From contig HF988734.1 in assembly GCA_000431235.1 (NCBI GenBank), forward strand, positions 72,647-136,646: a stretch of 64,000 nt of DNA, given 5' to 3'. Of the stretch, positions 18,439 through 41,053 are shown piece after piece. The notes beneath the pieces were generated by a model, which saw nothing but the letters and a program-made list of their open reading frames with translations, made no database searches and was not told the DNA's origin. The translations under genes were made by a program, and so were the position numbers. This stretch comes from Coprobacillus sp. CAG:698. Its GTDB lineage: Bacteria > Bacillota_I > Bacilli_A > ML615J-28 > CAG-698. Every line of letters begins with the position of its first letter. The stretch's first letter is position 1.

Positions 18439-19380
18439 ATGAAAATCAGTGAGTGTGAAATAGGTAAACCTGTAGAAATGATATTGAAGTTTACGAAAAT
18501 TCAATACTTTCCCCAAAACAGACAAGATTCTCAAGAATATGCGAGTATAACAGGATTAGATTGTGATAAGAGAACAATAGATGTAAGGATCTGGAAAGTT
18601 ACAGATGAAATTAAGAAACGTATTACTGAAAATGGTATATATTTATGCAAAGGTAAAATTAAACTATTTAATGATAAGAAACAGTTTATGATAGATAACG
18701 ATGGAATAACAGAAGCTAACGTTAATCCAGATGATTATTTAATAAAATGCCCTTTAGAAATCAATGAATTACAAATTGAAATCTCAAGATACATTCGAAA
18801 GATACAAAATGATAACTTGAGAAATATTGTTACTAAAGCCATAATGAAAATACAAAATGAATATTTTTCTTATCCAGCTGCCGTGTCAATTCACCACAAT
18901 TATTTAGGTGGTATTGCCTATCATGTTTATTCTATGTTAACTTTATCAGAGGTATATTTAAAACAATACAAGTACTTTAATTCTGATTTGGTATATGCAG
19001 GAATAATTATTCACGATATGGGTAAAGTAAAAGAATTAAGTGGTGTTGATAAAACAGCCTATACAGCAGAAGGTAATTTACTAGGTCATATAACAATTGG
19101 CGTAAATATGCTTCATGACGTGTGTAAAGAACTATCTTTAGAAAATACCGAGGAAGCTTTAGCACTAGAACATATAATTTTATCTCATCATGGTAAACAA
19201 GAATATGGATCACCAATAATACCTAAGATACCAGAAGCAGCTTTAATATTTATTTTAGATTATTCTGATTCACGTTTTGCTTCTTTATCAGAAATTATGA
19301 AACAAGTAAAGCCAGGAGAATATACTGAACCAGTGTTTGCTTTTGATAAGAGAATATTTTATATTCCTGACATAAAATAA
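18439..19380 (+). CDS. yhaM: 3'-5' exoribonuclease YhaM-like (OB-fold + HD domain)
   Basis: HD-domain motifs HHNYLGGIAYH, IIHDMGK and LSHHG. Starts 6 nt downstream of the previous gene. Confidence 0.75.
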   Translation: MKISECEIGKPVEMILKFTKIQYFPQNRQDSQEYASITGLDCDKRTIDVRIWKVTDEIKKRITENGIYLCKGKIKLFNDKKQFMIDNDGITEANVNPDDYLIKCPLEINELQIEISRYIRKIQNDNLRNIVTKAIMKIQNEYFSYPAAVSIHHNYLGGIAYHVYSMLTLSEVYLKQYKYFNSDLVYAGIIIHDMGKVKELSGVDKTAYTAEGNLLGHITIGVNMLHDVCKELSLENTEEALALEHIILSHHGKQEYGSPIIPKIPEAALIFILDYSDSRFASLSEIMKQVKPGEYTEPVFAFDKRIFYIPDIK

Positions 19381-19425
19381 CAAAAAAGGCTTTACAAAGA
19401 AAATAAAATGTAGTAAAATAAAATA

Positions 19426-19548
19426 GTCCTGTTAAGGACGTCATATGATATCGTCTACTAAACCCTTAGTTAGTAGACCCTCTCTTTCTTATTTCCTACT
19501 ATTATCAAGGCAAAAGGCTTCTAACAGTATTAGAGGTCTTTTGTTTTT
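19426..19548 (+). ncRNA. Candidate small RNA, copy 1 (promoter TTTACA-N17-TAAAAT at 19391-19419)
   Basis: Transcript-start hairpin GTCCTgttaAGGAC. Perfect 9-bp hairpin GTCTACTAA/TTAGTAGAC. CU-rich tract CCCUCUCUUUCUUAUUUCCU. Terminator GGCTTCTAA-cagta-TTAGAGGTC followed by TTTTGTTTTT. Confidence 0.4.
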
Positions 19549-19612
19549 AAAAAAATAAAAAAATTTTTAAAAAACTCTTTACAAAAAAAACCTAATGGTA
19601 TATAATATTAGT

Positions 19613-19740
19613 GTCCTATTAATTAGGACATCATATGATATCGTCTACTAAACCCCTAGTTAGTAGACCCTCTCTTTCTTATTTCCTACTATTATCAAAG
19701 CAAAGTGCTCTTAACTCTGTTGAGGGCATTTTGTTTTTTT
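19613..19740 (+). ncRNA. Candidate small RNA, copy 2 (promoter TTTACA-N17-TATAAT at 19578-19606)
   Basis: About 95% identical to copy 1 over the core (one C/T change in the hairpin loop, one A/G change). The terminator stem has a different sequence but the same structure: GCTCTTAAC/GTTGAGGGC followed by TTTTGTTTTTTT. Confidence 0.4.
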
Positions 19741-20058
19741 ACTCGCTTTTTTGGTTCATTTTCATCTCAAAAATATCAAAATTATTATTTTTTGGCTGAT
19801 TTATTTTTAGACATTACCATGACATAAAATAAAATAAATAACAAAATAAGACACTATTTTGATGGTATTTATGAAAAAAACTGAATAAAAAGAATAAAAT
19901 ATGACAAAATAATGGAAAAGTTACCATTGAATTAAAAAAAATGTTTACTTTTTACTAGAAAAGTAGTATAATACTAATGTTACATTAAAAAAGTGTACAT
20001 ACACACATATTATTAAAACAAAAGATGAAAAATAATAGTTTTAAGGAGAATGATTTTT

Positions 20059-23000
20059 ATGAATGGTTCATCTATTTTCAAAAAAGTATTTCCAGTAGTT
20101 CTAGTAATTGCAATGATATGCTTAATTACATTAGTAACAACATGTGCTAAAACTGGAAAAACAAACAAACCTGAGATTTCAAATCCTAATGGTGAGTACA
20201 TTTCAATAAAAGAAACTATTAACGGAAAAGAGTACAAGTACGTTATTTCTCGTAGTGAAATGTATGAAGAATTAAAGAGTGGAATCGGACTTAGCACACT
20301 CATTACTGAAGCTAACAAGAAAGTATTAGCTGAAGAAATGAAATCTGTTTCTGAAGAAGATATCGAAAAGGAAATCAAAAAGGCTACATATGGTGAAGAT
20401 GTAGACCCTGAAGATTTAACTGAAGAAAACAGAAATAAAAAGAAAAAAGAATTTGAAGAGTCAATGTTACAAGGCTATGGCTATGAAAACGAAGACGAAA
20501 TCAAAGATCATTATCGTTTAGTTCTTGCAAAAAAAGCTTATACGAATAAAAAACTTTATGAAGAAGCTAAAGATGCAAAAGATGGTGATGATTTATATAT
20601 CGCTGATACAAAAATTGATGATTATTATAAAGACAATTATAATAAATCATATTATGCAATTATCGTTCCATTTGCTTCAAGTGAAAGCATTAAGAGTGCA
20701 TTATTACAACTTGGTGTTGTAAGAAGTGGTGATAAATGGTATCATGCAGAATTGAAAGAAATCAAAGTTGGTTCTGGAATTTATGAAGTAGATCGTAAAG
20801 AAGAATTAACAGTTAATGAAATAATCGAAACTATTCTTAAACTTAATGAAATGGTTTATGGTTATCAAAAAGATTACGGATATAAAGTTGAAAATGCAAT
20901 ATTTGATTCTGAAAAGAAGACATATAGAGTTCCTGAAGGATGTGACTATGCAGTTGTAAGTTGTGCTGATAAATTAGCAGAACTAAAAGCATTAGCTACT
21001 GAGCTTACTCCTTTAGTGACTCCTGCAGATGGAAGTAAATTAACAGATGAAGAAAAACAAGCTGCTTTAGCTAAAGTTACTGAAATCCAAGCTAAATTAG
21101 ATGAAATTTCTGAAATGTTAGTTTATACAACAGAAGTTAAGAAAATTCAAAACATTATTACTTCACTTACTGATTCTCTAAATTATGAGACTAAAGAAGA
21201 CGATAAAAACGAAACTCCTGAAGACCCAACTATAGTAACACAAACATTAAATAAGTTTATTAGCGAATTTGATGGTGTGGCTTATATCTTTAATACAAAC
21301 AATGAAGAAAGCAAATTCTTCTATTCATATAGTGATTTAAAAGCTTACGATAGCAATTTACCAAGTGAATTCAAAAACAATTATATTGAATACATTCCTT
21401 ATGGTGAAGGTGATAAATCAGCAAGTAAGAACGGCGAAAAATGGTTCTCTGCTTCTTATGTTTCAAGTGGAAATATGTATTACATAATTCTAAAAATCAA
21501 AGAAAAAGATGCTGAACAACTTGCAGATGTTAAGGAAGAAATCAAAAACAAATTGTTAGAAGAAAAATTAACTTCTTCATACATTGAGAAAAAAATGGCT
21601 GAGTTAAGAAACGATAAAGGTTTCAAAGTTTATGATACTGATTTAGAAAAAGAATACATTAATACAATCTCTTCTTACAAAATTAAATATAAACAAAGCA
21701 AGAAAGATGGAAGCAATGTTGTAGGTGAAATTGATGGAACTAAATTCACTTCTGATGATTTATTCAAAGCAATGGATAAGACTTCAGGTGCTGCTTCAGT
21801 AGTAAGTGAATTATCATATCGTAGAATGGTTAACAATACACTATTCAACAAATATTATGATTATACAACTGGTAAATGGATTGGCAAAGAAGGAAAAGAT
21901 AAACGTGATGAAATCACAACATCTATTGAAAATCAAAGATTATACTATTTATCAGGTGCTTATTCATCTTATGGATATGATCCAAGCTCAATGAGTTGGT
22001 CTGAATTCCTTAAGAATGTAAATGGTGCTAAAGATGAAAAAGATTTAGCATTCCTTAACCTTTATAGTCAAGTAATTTCTGATTATATCAAAAAAGCATT
22101 TAACACAATCACTGTAACAGGTGAAGGCAAAGATACTAAATTTGAAGATACATACGCAGAAGCTTTAACTTCTAAAGTATGGAAATTAATCGAAGAAAGA
22201 ATGAAGAAAGCTCAAGAAGAAGAATTTACTGTTAATGGTGTTCATTTATTAGTTTCTGCTTATAAAACTGTTAATGACGCTGTAGCATCAAAGAACTCTT
22301 CATCTTCGTCTTCGTCTTCATCTAAAGTTTCTGCTTTAGATCCAAAAGATTGGACTGAAGAACAAGTTAAACTTGCAAAAGAACTCATTGAAAAAGTAAG
22401 TTTATACTTAGAAAGTGCTGAAGGAACATATGAAAGCAAATTAGAAGCAGTTGTATCTGCATTCGATAGTGCTCCATATGCATATGTTGATCCAACAACA
22501 AACGAATATGTAAAAATCATCAACGATAGTGGTGAAGAATATAAGTATTATTTAGAATGCGCTGAATGTAAAATTGATTTAGCAAAATATAAATCTGCTG
22601 GTTTAACACTAACTTATCAAAACTTAGGATCTTTCACAAACGGAAAGATGGTTAAAGAATTTGAAGAAGCTGCAAGATCTATTTGGAAAAAAGATTATGC
22701 AGATAAAGAATTTAATAGAGTTACAGTATATGGAGAACCAATCAAAACTGAATTTGGATACCATTTATATGTAAATCTAAGTAGTTCAGACTATACAGAA
22801 TATGATAGCATTAAAGTAGATGCTAATGGAAATCCAGTTTATACAAATGATGTTCTTGAAAAATTTAAATCTGTTCTTCCAAGCTTATACGAAGTAAGAT
22901 TAGGTTTATTACTAACTGCTTTAGAAGCAATTGATCAAACTAAATTAAGTAAAGAAGATGCTAAAGTTGTTCAAGAAAAAATTGATGAATTAAAACCATT

Positions 23001-23271
23001 GTATACAACAGAAATTAAGACAGCTGTAGAAAAATATGCAACTCCAATTATTACAAATCTAAATAGTTCATATTATTCATCATTAGTTCAACAAGCTGAA
23101 GTATTATCATTAATGGAAGGCGTTACAATTGATTCACCAAGTGGAATCAATCTTGCAAAGATTAAGAAGTTAATGGATATTAGCAGAGCTTCAATATTTA
23201 AAAGTAATCTAGCAAACTTAGAAGAAGGCGATCAAGACATCGTTAAAGCTTCTGATGTTTATGGAAAGTAA
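20059..23271 (+). CDS. Large lipoprotein with split parvulin-type PPIase domain (PrsA-like foldase family, expanded)
   Basis: RBS AAGGAGA with ATG at 20059. Signal peptide plus lipobox LVTTC. C-terminal parvulin motifs VHLLVS ... GKMVKEFEEAA ... FGYHLY. A poly-Ser run is present. 1070 aa. Confidence 0.6.
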   Translation: MNGSSIFKKVFPVVLVIAMICLITLVTTCAKTGKTNKPEISNPNGEYISIKETINGKEYKYVISRSEMYEELKSGIGLSTLITEANKKVLAEEMKSVSEEDIEKEIKKATYGEDVDPEDLTEENRNKKKKEFEESMLQGYGYENEDEIKDHYRLVLAKKAYTNKKLYEEAKDAKDGDDLYIADTKIDDYYKDNYNKSYYAIIVPFASSESIKSALLQLGVVRSGDKWYHAELKEIKVGSGIYEVDRKEELTVNEIIETILKLNEMVYGYQKDYGYKVENAIFDSEKKTYRVPEGCDYAVVSCADKLAELKALATELTPLVTPADGSKLTDEEKQAALAKVTEIQAKLDEISEMLVYTTEVKKIQNIITSLTDSLNYETKEDDKNETPEDPTIVTQTLNKFISEFDGVAYIFNTNNEESKFFYSYSDLKAYDSNLPSEFKNNYIEYIPYGEGDKSASKNGEKWFSASYVSSGNMYYIILKIKEKDAEQLADVKEEIKNKLLEEKLTSSYIEKKMAELRNDKGFKVYDTDLEKEYINTISSYKIKYKQSKKDGSNVVGEIDGTKFTSDDLFKAMDKTSGAASVVSELSYRRMVNNTLFNKYYDYTTGKWIGKEGKDKRDEITTSIENQRLYYLSGAYSSYGYDPSSMSWSEFLKNVNGAKDEKDLAFLNLYSQVISDYIKKAFNTITVTGEGKDTKFEDTYAEALTSKVWKLIEERMKKAQEEEFTVNGVHLLVSAYKTVNDAVASKNSSSSSSSSSKVSALDPKDWTEEQVKLAKELIEKVSLYLESAEGTYESKLEAVVSAFDSAPYAYVDPTTNEYVKIINDSGEEYKYYLECAECKIDLAKYKSAGLTLTYQNLGSFTNGKMVKEFEEAARSIWKKDYADKEFNRVTVYGEPIKTEFGYHLYVNLSSSDYTEYDSIKVDANGNPVYTNDVLEKFKSVLPSLYEVRLGLLLTALEAIDQTKLSKEDAKVVQEKIDELKPLYTTEIKTAVEKYATPIITNLNSSYYSSLVQQAEVLSLMEGVTIDSPSGINLAKIKKLMDISRASIFKSNLANLEEGDQDIVKASDVYGK

Positions 23272-23284
23272 GGAGGTTAATAAA

Positions 23285-25921
23285 ATGAAAAAAATAATTG
23301 CGATATTATTAACACTCGTATTAACAGTATCTTTAGTAGGTTGTACTAAAAACGATAAAAAGAATCCTCAACTTACAAATGGTGCTCAAGAACTTAGCTC
23401 AATCACTGAAAATGGCGTTAAATATGTAGTTACAAACCAAGAAGCATATAATGCTTTAAAGGCACAATATGGTAGCACTATTCTAATTGATTTAATCGAT
23501 ACAAAATTAATGAGTACTCTTAAAAACAAAGATGGAAAAACATTCTTTGATGCAGTTTTAGATGAAGACATCGTTAAAGAAATCGATAAAGTTATGTATG
23601 GTGAAGATGAATTAACTGATAAAGAAAAAGATGAAAAGAAAAAAGATTTTCTTGAAAATTTATTCATTGGTAGCGGTATTATTACTGAAGATCCTTATGC
23701 AACAGAAGTAAAAGATAAATATCGTTTAGTTCTTGCTGAAAGAGCTTATGCTAAAGAATTATTAGCAAAAGATGTTAAGGAAAACGATGCTAAATACGAA
23801 GAATACGCTAAGTTAACAAAAGAAGAACAAGAACAAAAATTAAAAGATGAACCAAAAACTCCAACTGATTATTATTTTGCTGATTCAAAAATCCAAGCTA
23901 AATATGCAAAAGATGTTTATAGTAAATTTGAAGCAATAATTGTTCCATTTACTTCAAAACGTCAAGCTGAAATAGCATTAACACAAATTAACGTAACTGT
24001 TAAAGATGGTGTTTGGACTGATGGAACAAATGCATTATCAGCTCTTCAAGTTTTTGAAAAATTCATTGAACTTTATAAAGTTGTTTACGGATACAAAGTT
24101 ACTGGTGAGTTAAATAAAGATAGTGAAGAATTCAAATTTAACGAAGGCGATTTAAATAGTAATATTCTAAAAGTCGTTAAAGATAAATTAGAAACATATA
24201 CAGAAGATAGCAAGAATGAAGCACCTAAATGGTACACACCTAACGCAATCGAAATTGGTTCAGGTAATGAAGCTATTTATGTATTAAAATTAAATGAAGA
24301 GTTAGCTACATCTTATGAAGATTTAGACGAAGCTGGCAAAAAAGCTCAAAGAGAAAAATATACTGATGCTTTAATTGATGAAACAGTTACATCTAATTAT
24401 GTACTTGTAAAAATGGGTTTATTAAGAAAAGAACAAAATATAGTTATCTATGATAGCGTTGTTGAAAACTTATATAGTAATGCAATGTCTAAGTTATCTG
24501 TAACATATGATAAAACAAAATTAGAAAGTGCTGAGTATGTTGCTGAAACAACTGATATTAAAGTAACACCAAAAGATTTATATGATGCTATGCTTAAATA
24601 TCAAGGTGCTGCTATTGTTATGGATAAACTTGTTGAAAAGAGAGCTTTATATAATAAGAACTTCAATAAGTATTATGATATGAGCACTAACAAATGGTTA
24701 AATAATAATAAGAAAACTGAAATAACTGATTTAATTGAAGCTGAAAAGAAAAACTTCAAAAATGGAAACTATAAAGATTATGGATATGATCCTAGTCAAA
24801 TGAGTTGGACATTATTTATTAAATCATTATATACAGTTGAAAACGAAGATGAATTAGTTCTTTCATTCTTAGCTGAATCTATTACAAAAGAATATGCTAA
24901 GAATATCAATAGATTTGCTGAACTAAACGATAAAGGCGAATTCGTACTTTCTAACGATGCTGCACTAACTGATAACTATTGGCGTTTAATAAGCAATCAA
25001 ATGGAAGCTGAAGCAAAGAAAAAATTCAGCGTTGAAGGAATTCATTTATTAGTATCACACTATGATACAGTTGAAGATTATATCAGCGGAAGCAATATTG
25101 TTGATCCAGAAAAGTGGACAGAAGAACAAAGAGTAGCTGCTGAAAAATTAGTTAACGAAGTTATTGCTTTCGTTAAAGATTCAAAGGGCTCATATGCTTC
25201 TCGTTTAGAAAGAATTGCAGAAGCTTTCAAATATGCTCCTGTTAAAAATGCTGATGCAACATATGCTAATAACAAAGTTGCAAGAACAATCGTTAGTGAT
25301 GGCGGTGCTGTTACAATTAACTTAAGTGAATATAAAGAAAAAGGTTTATATGTAAAATATGAATCATTAGGTGTTTTCGCTCAAGGTAAGATGGTTGAAT
25401 CTTTCAATGATGCTGTTAAGAAAATTTGGGATGCAGATGCAGATAAAGACGTATTCAATGACAAAGATCTTAATGATGTAGATAAAGTAACAGTTTTAGA
25501 AACTCCAATTAAGACTTCATTTGGATATCATGCATATATTAATATTGAAAGTAAAGAATTAAGTTCTTATATCAAAGTTATCACAGATTCTGTAGATGGT
25601 AAAACATTCCATAAATATCAATACGTACCAACTATGGATGAAGTTCGTAAGTATGTTAAGAATACAAATACTACTGAAATAACTGAAAAAGTTAAAAATG
25701 CTATTAAGACATATTATACTCCAATAGCAGATGAATTAAGTGGTGATGCATTCTCATACATTATGATGGTTAATGCTTTAGAACAAGTTATAAGTTCTTA
25801 TTCATCAACTGATAACGGAGTATCTCAAGATGCTTTAAAGAAATATATTGAATGTTATAAAGATTATACATTTAGTGATTTATTAAGTAATGTTACAGTT
25901 GATTATTTATATGTAAAATAA
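23285..25921 (+). CDS. Large lipoprotein, paralog of the upstream gene (PrsA-like split parvulin domain)
   Basis: RBS AAGGAGG. Lipobox LVGC. Many blocks are collinear with the upstream protein (DKYRLVLAE..., GYDPSQMSW, IHLLVSHYD, GKMVESFNDA, FGYHAYIN). 878 aa. Confidence 0.6.
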   Translation: MKKIIAILLTLVLTVSLVGCTKNDKKNPQLTNGAQELSSITENGVKYVVTNQEAYNALKAQYGSTILIDLIDTKLMSTLKNKDGKTFFDAVLDEDIVKEIDKVMYGEDELTDKEKDEKKKDFLENLFIGSGIITEDPYATEVKDKYRLVLAERAYAKELLAKDVKENDAKYEEYAKLTKEEQEQKLKDEPKTPTDYYFADSKIQAKYAKDVYSKFEAIIVPFTSKRQAEIALTQINVTVKDGVWTDGTNALSALQVFEKFIELYKVVYGYKVTGELNKDSEEFKFNEGDLNSNILKVVKDKLETYTEDSKNEAPKWYTPNAIEIGSGNEAIYVLKLNEELATSYEDLDEAGKKAQREKYTDALIDETVTSNYVLVKMGLLRKEQNIVIYDSVVENLYSNAMSKLSVTYDKTKLESAEYVAETTDIKVTPKDLYDAMLKYQGAAIVMDKLVEKRALYNKNFNKYYDMSTNKWLNNNKKTEITDLIEAEKKNFKNGNYKDYGYDPSQMSWTLFIKSLYTVENEDELVLSFLAESITKEYAKNINRFAELNDKGEFVLSNDAALTDNYWRLISNQMEAEAKKKFSVEGIHLLVSHYDTVEDYISGSNIVDPEKWTEEQRVAAEKLVNEVIAFVKDSKGSYASRLERIAEAFKYAPVKNADATYANNKVARTIVSDGGAVTINLSEYKEKGLYVKYESLGVFAQGKMVESFNDAVKKIWDADADKDVFNDKDLNDVDKVTVLETPIKTSFGYHAYINIESKELSSYIKVITDSVDGKTFHKYQYVPTMDEVRKYVKNTNTTEITEKVKNAIKTYYTPIADELSGDAFSYIMMVNALEQVISSYSSTDNGVSQDALKKYIECYKDYTFSDLLSNVTVDYLYVK

Positions 25922-40213: not shown

Positions 40214-40311
40214 ATAACTTTCCTCCGAATATATATAGTTTACCATATATTTGTGTTTTCTTCAATAAATGAATTGAAAAAAAATAAAAAATGATATATA
40301 ATAAGTCGGAC

Positions 40312-40400
40312 AATTTAAATGGGAGCTTCGGCTGAGAGGTTACGAAAGTAACGACCATCTAACCTGATCTAGGTAATGCTAGCGTAGGAATTTAAATTTC
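40312..40400 (+). ncRNA. TPP (thiamine pyrophosphate) riboswitch
   Basis: Conserved THI-box elements GGCTGAGAG ... AACCTGATCTAGGTAATGCTAGCGTAGGAA. Promoter TTGAAA-N17-TATAAT at 40282-40310. A T-tract terminator-like platform precedes thiT. Confidence 0.8.
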
Positions 40401-40453
40401 TATACACATATAGCATTCCAAAAACTATTTTTTGTTTTGGGAGGTTATTAATT

Positions 40454-41053
40454 ATGAAGAAAAAAGTAGTTTTTAATATCACTTTTACAGCGGTGATGAT
40501 AGGTTTAGCTGTAGCCTTTGATTTTGTAGCAGGATTAATTCCATTTTTGAAATTTCCTTATGGAGGATGCATTTCTTTTGCAATGCTTCCATTAGTGTTA
40601 ATTTCTATTATGTGTGGACCTGTTTATGGCATCATTGGTGGAAGTCTTTTTGGCTTAATAAATTATTTTATTGATGGATATGGATTTAATATAATTTCAT
40701 TTCTATTAGATTATATTGTTGCTTTTGCCACACTAGCAATTATTTCTGTTTTTAGAAAGAAAATTCTTGAAGGAAAAAAAGGATACTTTGTGTTAGGCTT
40801 TGCACTAGGATTAATTTTAAGATGGATTTCAAGTAGTATAAGTGGTGTCTTGAATGCAGCGTCTTTTGGAATTGATGGTCCATTTTTAGAAAGTATTTTT
40901 GGAAATGGTAAAACTTCATTATTGTATATATGCATATATTCATTTATTTTGTATAATATGCCTTATATTTTCGCTTCTGGTGTACTTTGCATAGTTTTAG
41001 GTCTAATTATGTATAACAGTGTTATAATGAGAAAAAATGGTGAAAATGAATAA
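40454..41053 (+). CDS. thiT: ECF transporter S component for thiamine (ThiT-like)
   Basis: Six-TM protein of about 200 aa directly downstream of the TPP riboswitch. RBS GGGAGG. Confidence 0.7.
   Translation: MKKKVVFNITFTAVMIGLAVAFDFVAGLIPFLKFPYGGCISFAMLPLVLISIMCGPVYGIIGGSLFGLINYFIDGYGFNIISFLLDYIVAFATLAIISVFRKKILEGKKGYFVLGFALGLILRWISSSISGVLNAASFGIDGPFLESIFGNGKTSLLYICIYSFILYNMPYIFASGVLCIVLGLIMYNSVIMRKNGENE

Follow-up and report, generated by a model that had tools for sequence, protein, structure and literature searches.

What is encoded by the two near-identical small units that stand head-to-tail between a yhaM-like gene and two giant lipoprotein genes of Coprobacillus sp. CAG:698? They lie within positions 19385-19750 (the units proper at 19391-19741) of a 64,000-nt stretch of contig HF988734.1 (assembly GCA_000431235.1), which was analysed as a whole and is called the window below; its GC content is about 29% and its long open reading frames (ORFs) are open under the standard code. 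An earlier reading of this DNA, referred to here as the original prediction, proposed a duplicated small RNA (sRNA) gene with a CU-rich tract resembling those that pair with Shine–Dalgarno (SD) sequences. Comparison with relatives indicates that the units represent a genuine, conserved sRNA family which is new to Rfam 15. Each unit is predicted to encode an independently transcribed non-coding RNA of about 125 nt, its transcription being deduced from the sequence.

The copies share a 114-nt direct-repeat block (19435-19548 and 19625-19738) with 87% identity and a spacing of 190 nt, close to what had been proposed, and the mean column identity of the full-length copies is 88%. The 45-nt block GTCTACTAAACCCYTAGTTAGTAGACCCTCTCTTTCTTATTTCCT, which covers a 9-bp hairpin together with the first part of the CU tract, has just two occurrences in the window, against none in shuffled sequences. 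Both units fold on the plus strand as had been described: a 5′ hairpin, a linker, the 9-bp hairpin (hairpin 2), some 30 nt of unpaired, G-free CU tract, and a terminator of 18-19 bp (Table 1). The loop of hairpin 2 has the form ACCC(U/C)UAG, and CCCUCUC is located directly 3′ of this hairpin. The plus-strand folding energies are −37.3 kcal/mol for copy 1 (z = −5.3) and −41.0 kcal/mol for copy 2 (z = −7.7); the minus-strand folds are unremarkable (z = −2.2 and −1.5, respectively). The sigma-A-like promoters with a 17-nt spacer, ascribed to both units by the original prediction, were recovered by the promoter scan and rank among the best sigma-70-like sites of the scanned region, with an A-rich stretch immediately 5′ of the copy 1 promoter. 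The terminator stems, previously taken to be 9 bp long, proved to comprise 16-19 bp, since their A-rich and U-rich extensions pair as well. A covariance model (R1), when run on the whole 64 kb, detects just these two copies at about 146 bits each and no third one.

Table 1. Features of the sRNA locus and of its neighbours (positions in the window).
Feature	Position	Strand	Basis and remarks
Promoter, copy 1	19391..19419	+	TTTACA-N17-TAAAAT; promoter scan 10/12
sRNA copy 1, ~124 nt	19426..19549	+	R1 match, 146.3 bits at 19426-19554
Copy 1, 5′ hairpin	19426-19439	+	fold
Copy 1, linker	19440-19452	+	fold
Copy 1, hairpin 2	19453-19478	+	loop ACCCUUAG
Copy 1, CU tract	19479-19508	+	fold; G-free, unpaired
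Copy 1, invariant 25-nt tract core	19482..19506	+	TCTCTTTCTTATTTCCTACTATTAT; presumed functional single strand
Copy 1, terminator hairpin	19507-19547	+	fold; U tail
Promoter, copy 2	19578..19606	+	TTTACA-N17-TATAAT; 11/12, top site of the scanned region
sRNA copy 2, ~129 nt	19613..19741	+	R1 match, 146.9 bits at 19613-19744
Copy 2, 5′ hairpin	19613-19629	+	fold
Copy 2, hairpin 2	19643-19668	+	loop ACCCCUAG
Copy 2, CU tract	19669-19698	+	fold
Copy 2, invariant 25-nt tract core	19672-19696	+	TCTCTTTCTTATTTCCTACTATTAT; presumed functional single strand
Copy 2, terminator hairpin	19697-19737	+	fold; U tail
YhaM-like HD-domain 3′-5′ exoribonuclease gene (upstream)	18439..19380	+	Pfam HD; homologues annotated as 3′-5′ exoribonuclease
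Lipoprotein operon promoter	19944..19972	+	TTTACT-N17-TATAAT; promoter scan; ~200 nt 3′ of copy 2
Lipoprotein operon, LipoA + LipoB (downstream)	20059..25921	+	tblastn synteny, 8 loci
LipoA	20059-23271	+	listed ORF start 20050; 20059 is the most likely start
LipoB	23285-25921	+	listed ORF start 23255; 23285 is the most likely start; lipobox LVGC

That these units are maintained as RNA is indicated by a comparative set of 16 units from 12 species-level lineages, the window's own included. All 16 fold independently to the same four-part architecture despite differing helix sequences, and R1, which was built from eight units with a hand-checked structure, recovers every one of them at 50-153 bits. 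In the structural alignment 96.5% of the cells are paired by standard pairs, and 21 of the 31 pairs have changed on both sides: 5/6 in the 5′ hairpin, 2/9 in hairpin 2 (where six pairs are invariant) and 14/16 in the terminator. None of 500 shuffles reached the observed pairing and covariation, and slid controls are only 38-55% paired. This alignment was fitted to R1 and is therefore somewhat biased toward the structure, but the independent single-sequence folds agree with it. The covariation claimed for a functional RNA thus extends to all three helices, and we interpret it as selection on RNA structure.

The transcription signals are preserved along with the fold. A TTTAC(A/G) box, a 17-nt spacer and a −10 box located 4-7 nt 5′ of the first G of the 5′ hairpin are present in 15 of the 16 units, and every unit possesses a terminator with a U tail, poor in copy 2 of lineage L001. 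Further upstream, at a fixed distance from the sRNA −35 box and 14-21 nt 5′ of it, the motif TGCAAC/TGCAAG/TGTAAG is found in L009, L029, L115, L024, L026, L022, L018, and L028. A repeat of it often occurs some 21 nt further 5′, an inverted repeat is formed in L115, and the motif looks like a regulator binding site; an A-tract (UP-like) occupies its place in the window, L001, L019, L012, and L021. The copy 1 promoter begins 10 nt past the yhaM stop codon, and no terminator is present in between (window 19380-19396). Because yhaM and this promoter are not separated by a terminator, yhaM transcripts could possibly run into copy 1 and stop at its terminator, giving a 3′UTR-derived isoform (UTR, untranslated region).

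Apart from that of the window, at least 11 species-level lineages carry the sRNA units, all of them uncultured and Bacilli/Acholeplasmatales-like; the family is patchily distributed among such bacteria, with one locus per genome and conserved synteny. An identical tandem arrangement downstream of yhaM is carried by L007, a contig of the same species. The pair is also present in L001, whose YhaM protein is 78% identical to that of the window, and here the first unit resembles the first and the second resembles the second both in the linker and in the terminator; because of this correspondence, the duplication shared by the window and L001 is considered older than the split of the two species. 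In L006 (YhaM 77%), at least one copy precedes the contig end, while L009, L012, and L115 (YhaM 53-59%) have a single copy each. L013 (YhaM 59%) has lost the gene: of the tract, 14 nt (ATTTCCTACTATTA) persist as a relic at L013:4977-4990, directly 3′ of the yhaM terminator, which points to a lineage-specific loss. No unit is located downstream of yhaM in L111 and L113 (YhaM 47-48%), and the R1 search detected none in L013, L111, or L113.

A scan of 185,579 species genomes on both strands with the 19-mer TCTCTTTCTTATTTCCTAC yielded nine true loci and seven chance matches, the latter mostly apparently within coding sequence. The true loci include that of Acholeplasmatales bacterium DTU056, whose YhaM is just 39% identical to that of the window. 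In L019 (YhaM 55% identical), a separate tandem pair (L019:6167-6544, minus strand) is formed by a 199-nt repeat which includes the promoter and shows few differences between its copies. Comparison of these loci indicates two or more independent origins of the tandem duplication. The conservation in relatives which the original prediction left to be checked is therefore seen both for the unit, with its strong hairpin and terminator covariation, and for the tandem pair, which is kept in L001 and has an independent counterpart in L019.

The absence of an ORF with a ribosome-binding site, asserted by the original prediction, is literally wrong, and yet the non-coding status it implied is upheld by the comparison of relatives. 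Each unit in the window has an ATG ORF (19445-19558, 37 codons; 19635-19799, 54 codons), the ATG being located 6 nt past the AGGA of the 5′ hairpin. One can suggest that these ORFs are translated as small proteins or type I toxins: both have the SD-like AGGA upstream, partly buried in the 5′ hairpin, and the differences between them are partly synonymous or conservative. We regard this as hardly credible, since the ORF is broken in 12 of the 16 units while the nucleotide sequence stays invariant: it is cut to 5-9 codons in six (L001_u1, L009, L012, L029, L018, and L028), frame-shifted in two (L001_u2 and L115), and deprived of its ATG in the linker of four (L021, L022, L024, and L026). In addition, the loop length shifts by 1-2 nt (CCC, CCCC, CCCCC), which a reading frame would not tolerate. 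As most relatives have this ORF shortened, out of frame or missing altogether, the units are judged to be non-coding, and the toxin reading is refuted by the same breakdown.

The most constrained part of the unit is the CU tract. Its 25-nt core is 100% identical in all units, while the identity to the window is 57-75% for yhaM DNA, 59-95% for the region from the 5′ hairpin to hairpin 2, and 52-82% for the terminator region. The invariance of the core is partly by construction for the units found with the 19-mer, but the units found by synteny alone, which are unbiased in this respect (eight copies from six species), have an invariant core too. The tract contains no G, and almost every one of the 16 independently predicted folds leaves it unpaired. 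The loop of hairpin 2 carries a run of 3-6 C in most homologues, except for L018, L028, and L001_u1; in L018 and L028 hairpin 2 is shortened and the CUCUCUCU run is extended. A full-text literature search for the tract sequence found no paper.

Rfam 15 offers no leader, riboswitch or sRNA family to account for the units, an absence on which the original prediction depended. At the gathering score no family was assigned to the units in the window, and cmscan of 19300-20100 with E up to 10 gave no significant match, with RsaE and LhrC absent from the list; four divergent loci gave none at E up to 1. The best Rfam match, to the terminator alone, is sau-19 with 25.7 bits (gathering score 80), and a match to RsaD (18 bits; gathering score 50) is at chance level. 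A known RNA family is ruled out by these searches, none of which gave a significant match, as is membership in the RsaE family (RF01820), which matched neither in the window nor in the divergent loci.

In having a promoter and an intrinsic terminator of their own and a conserved structure but no conserved ORF, the units resemble trans-acting sRNAs in general, and their design recalls several known systems. LhrC genes occur in several copies in tandem, and their targets, mRNAs for cell-surface proteins and lipoproteins, include oppA and tcsA. In Listeria monocytogenes, the multicopy, envelope-stress-induced LhrC1-5 RNAs of about 110 nt also block translation at the ribosome-binding site of lapB mRNA, using redundant CU-rich/UCCC sites in a hairpin loop, in the single strand that separates this hairpin from the terminator, and in the terminator loop (PMC4132741). 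Similarly, the units described here are multicopy in some lineages, combine a C-rich loop with a CU-rich single strand and adjoin lipoprotein genes. Of the three LhrC-type sites, those in the loop and in the single strand are present as C/CU-rich sequences, but the terminator loops (CAGUA and UCU) lack one; a literal UCCC is found just in some relatives, e.g., L021 and L115. Instead of three short UCCC motifs, our units have one long invariant tract of 25-30 nt. They belong to another phylogenetic group and show no sequence or structure homology to LhrC, a LisRK-controlled RNA which is not among the cmscan matches mentioned above.

The RoxS/RsaE sRNAs of Staphylococcus and Bacillus (RF01820) use C-rich loops and unpaired regions for pairing with G-rich SD sequences (PMC4409812). 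Multiple C-rich regions in loops or unpaired RNA are found in our units as well, and the RsaE sequence is unusually conserved across distant Firmicutes. However, the units lack the CCCCUUUGUU duplication, and RsaE is a single-copy gene linked to redox and the tricarboxylic acid cycle via ResDE/SrrAB, of which nothing is evident here. The streptococcal csRNAs represent another parallel: several similar copies, each with two stem-loops and a very strong promoter, expose an unpaired region complementary to the SD sequence and AUG (PMC3091779). They share with our units the presence of several highly similar sRNAs per genome and the conserved unpaired region between stem-loops, but not the sequence; their promoters carry the CiaR repeat TTTAAG-N5-TTTAAG, while the units have TTTAC(A/G)-N17-TAxAAT without a TTTAAG repeat. 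In Proteobacteria, PrrF1/PrrF2 and OmrA/OmrB are adjacent near-identical sRNA genes with their own promoters and terminators, identical seeds and diverged flanks, but these RNAs are unrelated in sequence, Hfq-dependent and found in other phyla. The family is therefore analogous in design to LhrC, RsaE/RoxS, and the csRNAs, being homologous to none of them and a member of none.

The position of the locus, as originally described, is between yhaM and the two giant lipoprotein genes. The nearest homologues of the upstream YhaM-like protein come from metagenome-assembled genomes of uncultured “Bacilli bacterium”, Acholeplasmataceae, and “Coprobacillus”, including one of the window's own species from the human gut (Hadza). 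Downstream, LipoA and LipoB are paralogues with 32% identity (alignment A2). A single-sequence Pfam search of both found no domain, and the profile of A2 run against PDB gave a weak match to the PrsA parvulin domain (E = 5e-4); conserved motifs are GxHLLVS and FGYHLYVN. These data hint at a parvulin-like C-terminal region, and LipoA and LipoB may represent unusually large PrsA-like foldase lipoproteins. A metagenome scan seeded with the Lipo alignment, through its conserved peptides FGYHLYVN and GxMVExF, returned only generic loci of parvulin peptidyl-prolyl isomerases (L031-L110) and no further sRNA units.

According to tblastn and ORF maps, every sRNA unit is located closely upstream of a LipoA/LipoB homologue on the same strand. 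This linkage holds in L024 and L026, whose upstream neighbour is not yhaM, and in L018 one additional gene is inserted between the sRNA and the Lipo gene. The Lipo promoter and the start of its 5′UTR (about 80-170 nt long) are kept in relatives with and without the sRNA. The 5′UTR itself (window 19944-20058, plus strand), compared among the window, L001, L009, L012, L013, L024, L026, L111, and L115, opens with ATGTTRYA followed by a hairpin of species-variable sequence, which may be a separate cis-regulatory element. In relatives the operon goes on with an MBL-fold (YycJ-like) gene, rlmH, and uvrB.

Two observations concern other parts of the material. A thiamine pyrophosphate (TPP) riboswitch (RF00059, 60.8 bits, above the gathering score) is located at 40309-40407 on the plus strand, 5′ of the ORF 40454-41053, and is the sole Rfam match at the gathering score within the window. 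In the Hadza contig of the same species, the gene located 5′ of the ABC/Impact genes (L007:1-698) encodes a defence-like protein of 1209 aa, with a weak match to TIR_2 and an unmarked match to DUF6273; it may be strain-variable.

How might such an RNA act? We favour, giving it about an even chance, a trans-acting C/CU-rich sRNA which operates by antisense pairing with ribosome-binding sites. Transcription would start at the G opening the 5′-terminal hairpin and end at the long intrinsic terminator; in Firmicutes, a 5′-terminal hairpin typically shields the RNA from 5′ exonuclease. One or more mRNAs would be bound in trans at their purine-rich ribosome-binding regions by the CU tract and the C-rich loop (CCC to CCCCCC); this pairing would block translation initiation and/or alter mRNA decay, and the tandem duplication would raise the dosage. 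This antisense reading is favoured because the unpaired C/CU-rich loop or strand is a proven SD-binding module in sRNAs of the low-GC Firmicutes. Pairing with SD sequences in the RsaE/RoxS style is suggested by this analogy, and the window offers no convincing target.

Several results weigh against antisense pairing, the space searched for targets being the 64 kb and the short loci, about 5% of a genome. RNAduplex comparison of the tract with both strands of the window gave no outlier except its own antisense. Among 52 ranked initiation regions, a CAAX-protease gene was the first (−18.7 kcal/mol), LipoB the third (−15.6 kcal/mol), and LipoA the ninth (−12.0 kcal/mol), with nothing decisive, and the two-strand scan with the 19-mer returned from the carrier genomes the sRNA genes alone, with no extended antisense site of perfect complementarity. 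The sequence best complementary to the tract, AAAGAGAGGG, differs from the canonical SD sequence AAGGAGG. Finally, invariance over 25-30 nt far exceeds the usual sRNA seed of 6-12 nt and would fit a protein-binding or multi-target platform at least equally. Binding of the tract to rRNA is unsupported: with the E. coli 16S, 23S, and 5S rRNAs as a proxy, the duplex of −23.8 kcal/mol is no better than those of shuffled tracts (on average −22.5 kcal/mol).

The main rival to antisense pairing, which we consider unlikely, is that the RNA binds or titrates a protein, with the tract and hairpin 2 forming a high-affinity platform, a sponge or a cofactor. Rho (through YC-rich rut-like sites), a cold-shock protein, ribosomal protein S1, and the KH-domain proteins KhpA/B are the candidates. 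The 25-30 contiguous invariant nucleotides and the six invariant pairs of the nine in hairpin 2 are more than a short seed requires; the lack of a convincing mRNA partner in the window or the loci, and of a long complementary site in the carrier genomes, points in the same direction, and recurrent tandem duplication suits stoichiometric titration. However, the locus has no linked gene for a candidate protein, and long conserved single-stranded regions with multiple targets, such as R1 of GcvB, are known in base-pairing sRNAs. Moreover, C-rich loop and tract motifs are a known signature of SD-targeting sRNAs in the low-GC Firmicutes (PMC4132741, PMC4409812). A more specific proposal, which we hold to be doubtful, is that the tract is no antisense seed but a near-housekeeping site, decoy or cofactor, for example one that mimics an anti-SD or rut sequence and titrates a global RNA-binding factor, with its gene coupled to the lipoprotein operon.

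The constant company of this operon suggests the second rival, that the RNA is a dedicated regulator of the adjacent PrsA-like lipoproteins, acting either by base pairing at the ribosome-binding sites of LipoA and/or LipoB or, after partial terminator read-through, as part of an alternative long leader whose SD sequence is masked in cis by the CU tract. We judge it improbable to much the same degree as protein binding. It is consistent with the same-strand location of the unit upstream of a Lipo homologue at every locus, including L024 and L026 which are not flanked by yhaM, with the third rank of the LipoB initiation region, with the poor U tail of the L001 copy 2 terminator, and with a predicted duplex that recurs in the close clade between UUAUUUCCUACUAUUAU of the tract and the LipoA region AAUAAUAG..AAGGAGAAU. 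But the duplexes calculated for the tract and the Lipo 5′UTR of each species are weak (−7 to −13 kcal/mol) and change their register between species, LipoA is only ninth in the ranking, the operon has its own promoter and a 5′UTR which is unchanged in L013, L111, and L113 devoid of the sRNA, another gene intervenes in L018, and each tandem copy possesses a promoter and a terminator of its own. The independence of the Lipo gene, which keeps its own promoter and 5′UTR even in sRNA-less genomes, is also what sets the unit apart from a simple leader or attenuator. A cis-regulatory leader, riboswitch or attenuator, or else a non-functional DNA repeat or mobile element, could be imagined from the tandem arrangement 5′ of an operon and from the flagging of hairpin 2 with its T-rich run as terminator-like; it is nevertheless very unlikely, given the promoter and strong terminator of each unit followed by a separate operon promoter, the lack of an Rfam match, the single syntenic locus per genome, and the covariation, which speaks for selection on RNA structure. 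Searches of plasmids, of phages (blastn, distant mode) and of IMG/VR contigs found nothing similar to the units, and a mobile element is rejected for the lack of a match in the plasmid, phage and viral collections.

The hosts of this family are uncultured reduced-genome Bacilli/Acholeplasmatales-like bacteria from the gut of humans and animals and from digesters, in which post-transcriptional control is almost unstudied. For its analysis the family offers clear covariation, a long invariant strand as a precise target for mutation, and a fixed genomic partner, the giant and possibly PrsA-like lipoprotein. The independent tandem duplications represent a natural case for dosage selection on sRNAs; if the decoy proposal were true, the family would constitute a new class of protein-binding RNA in the reduced-genome gut Bacilli, where dosage selection keeps re-duplicating the gene. 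The family could enter Rfam and serve as a lineage marker.

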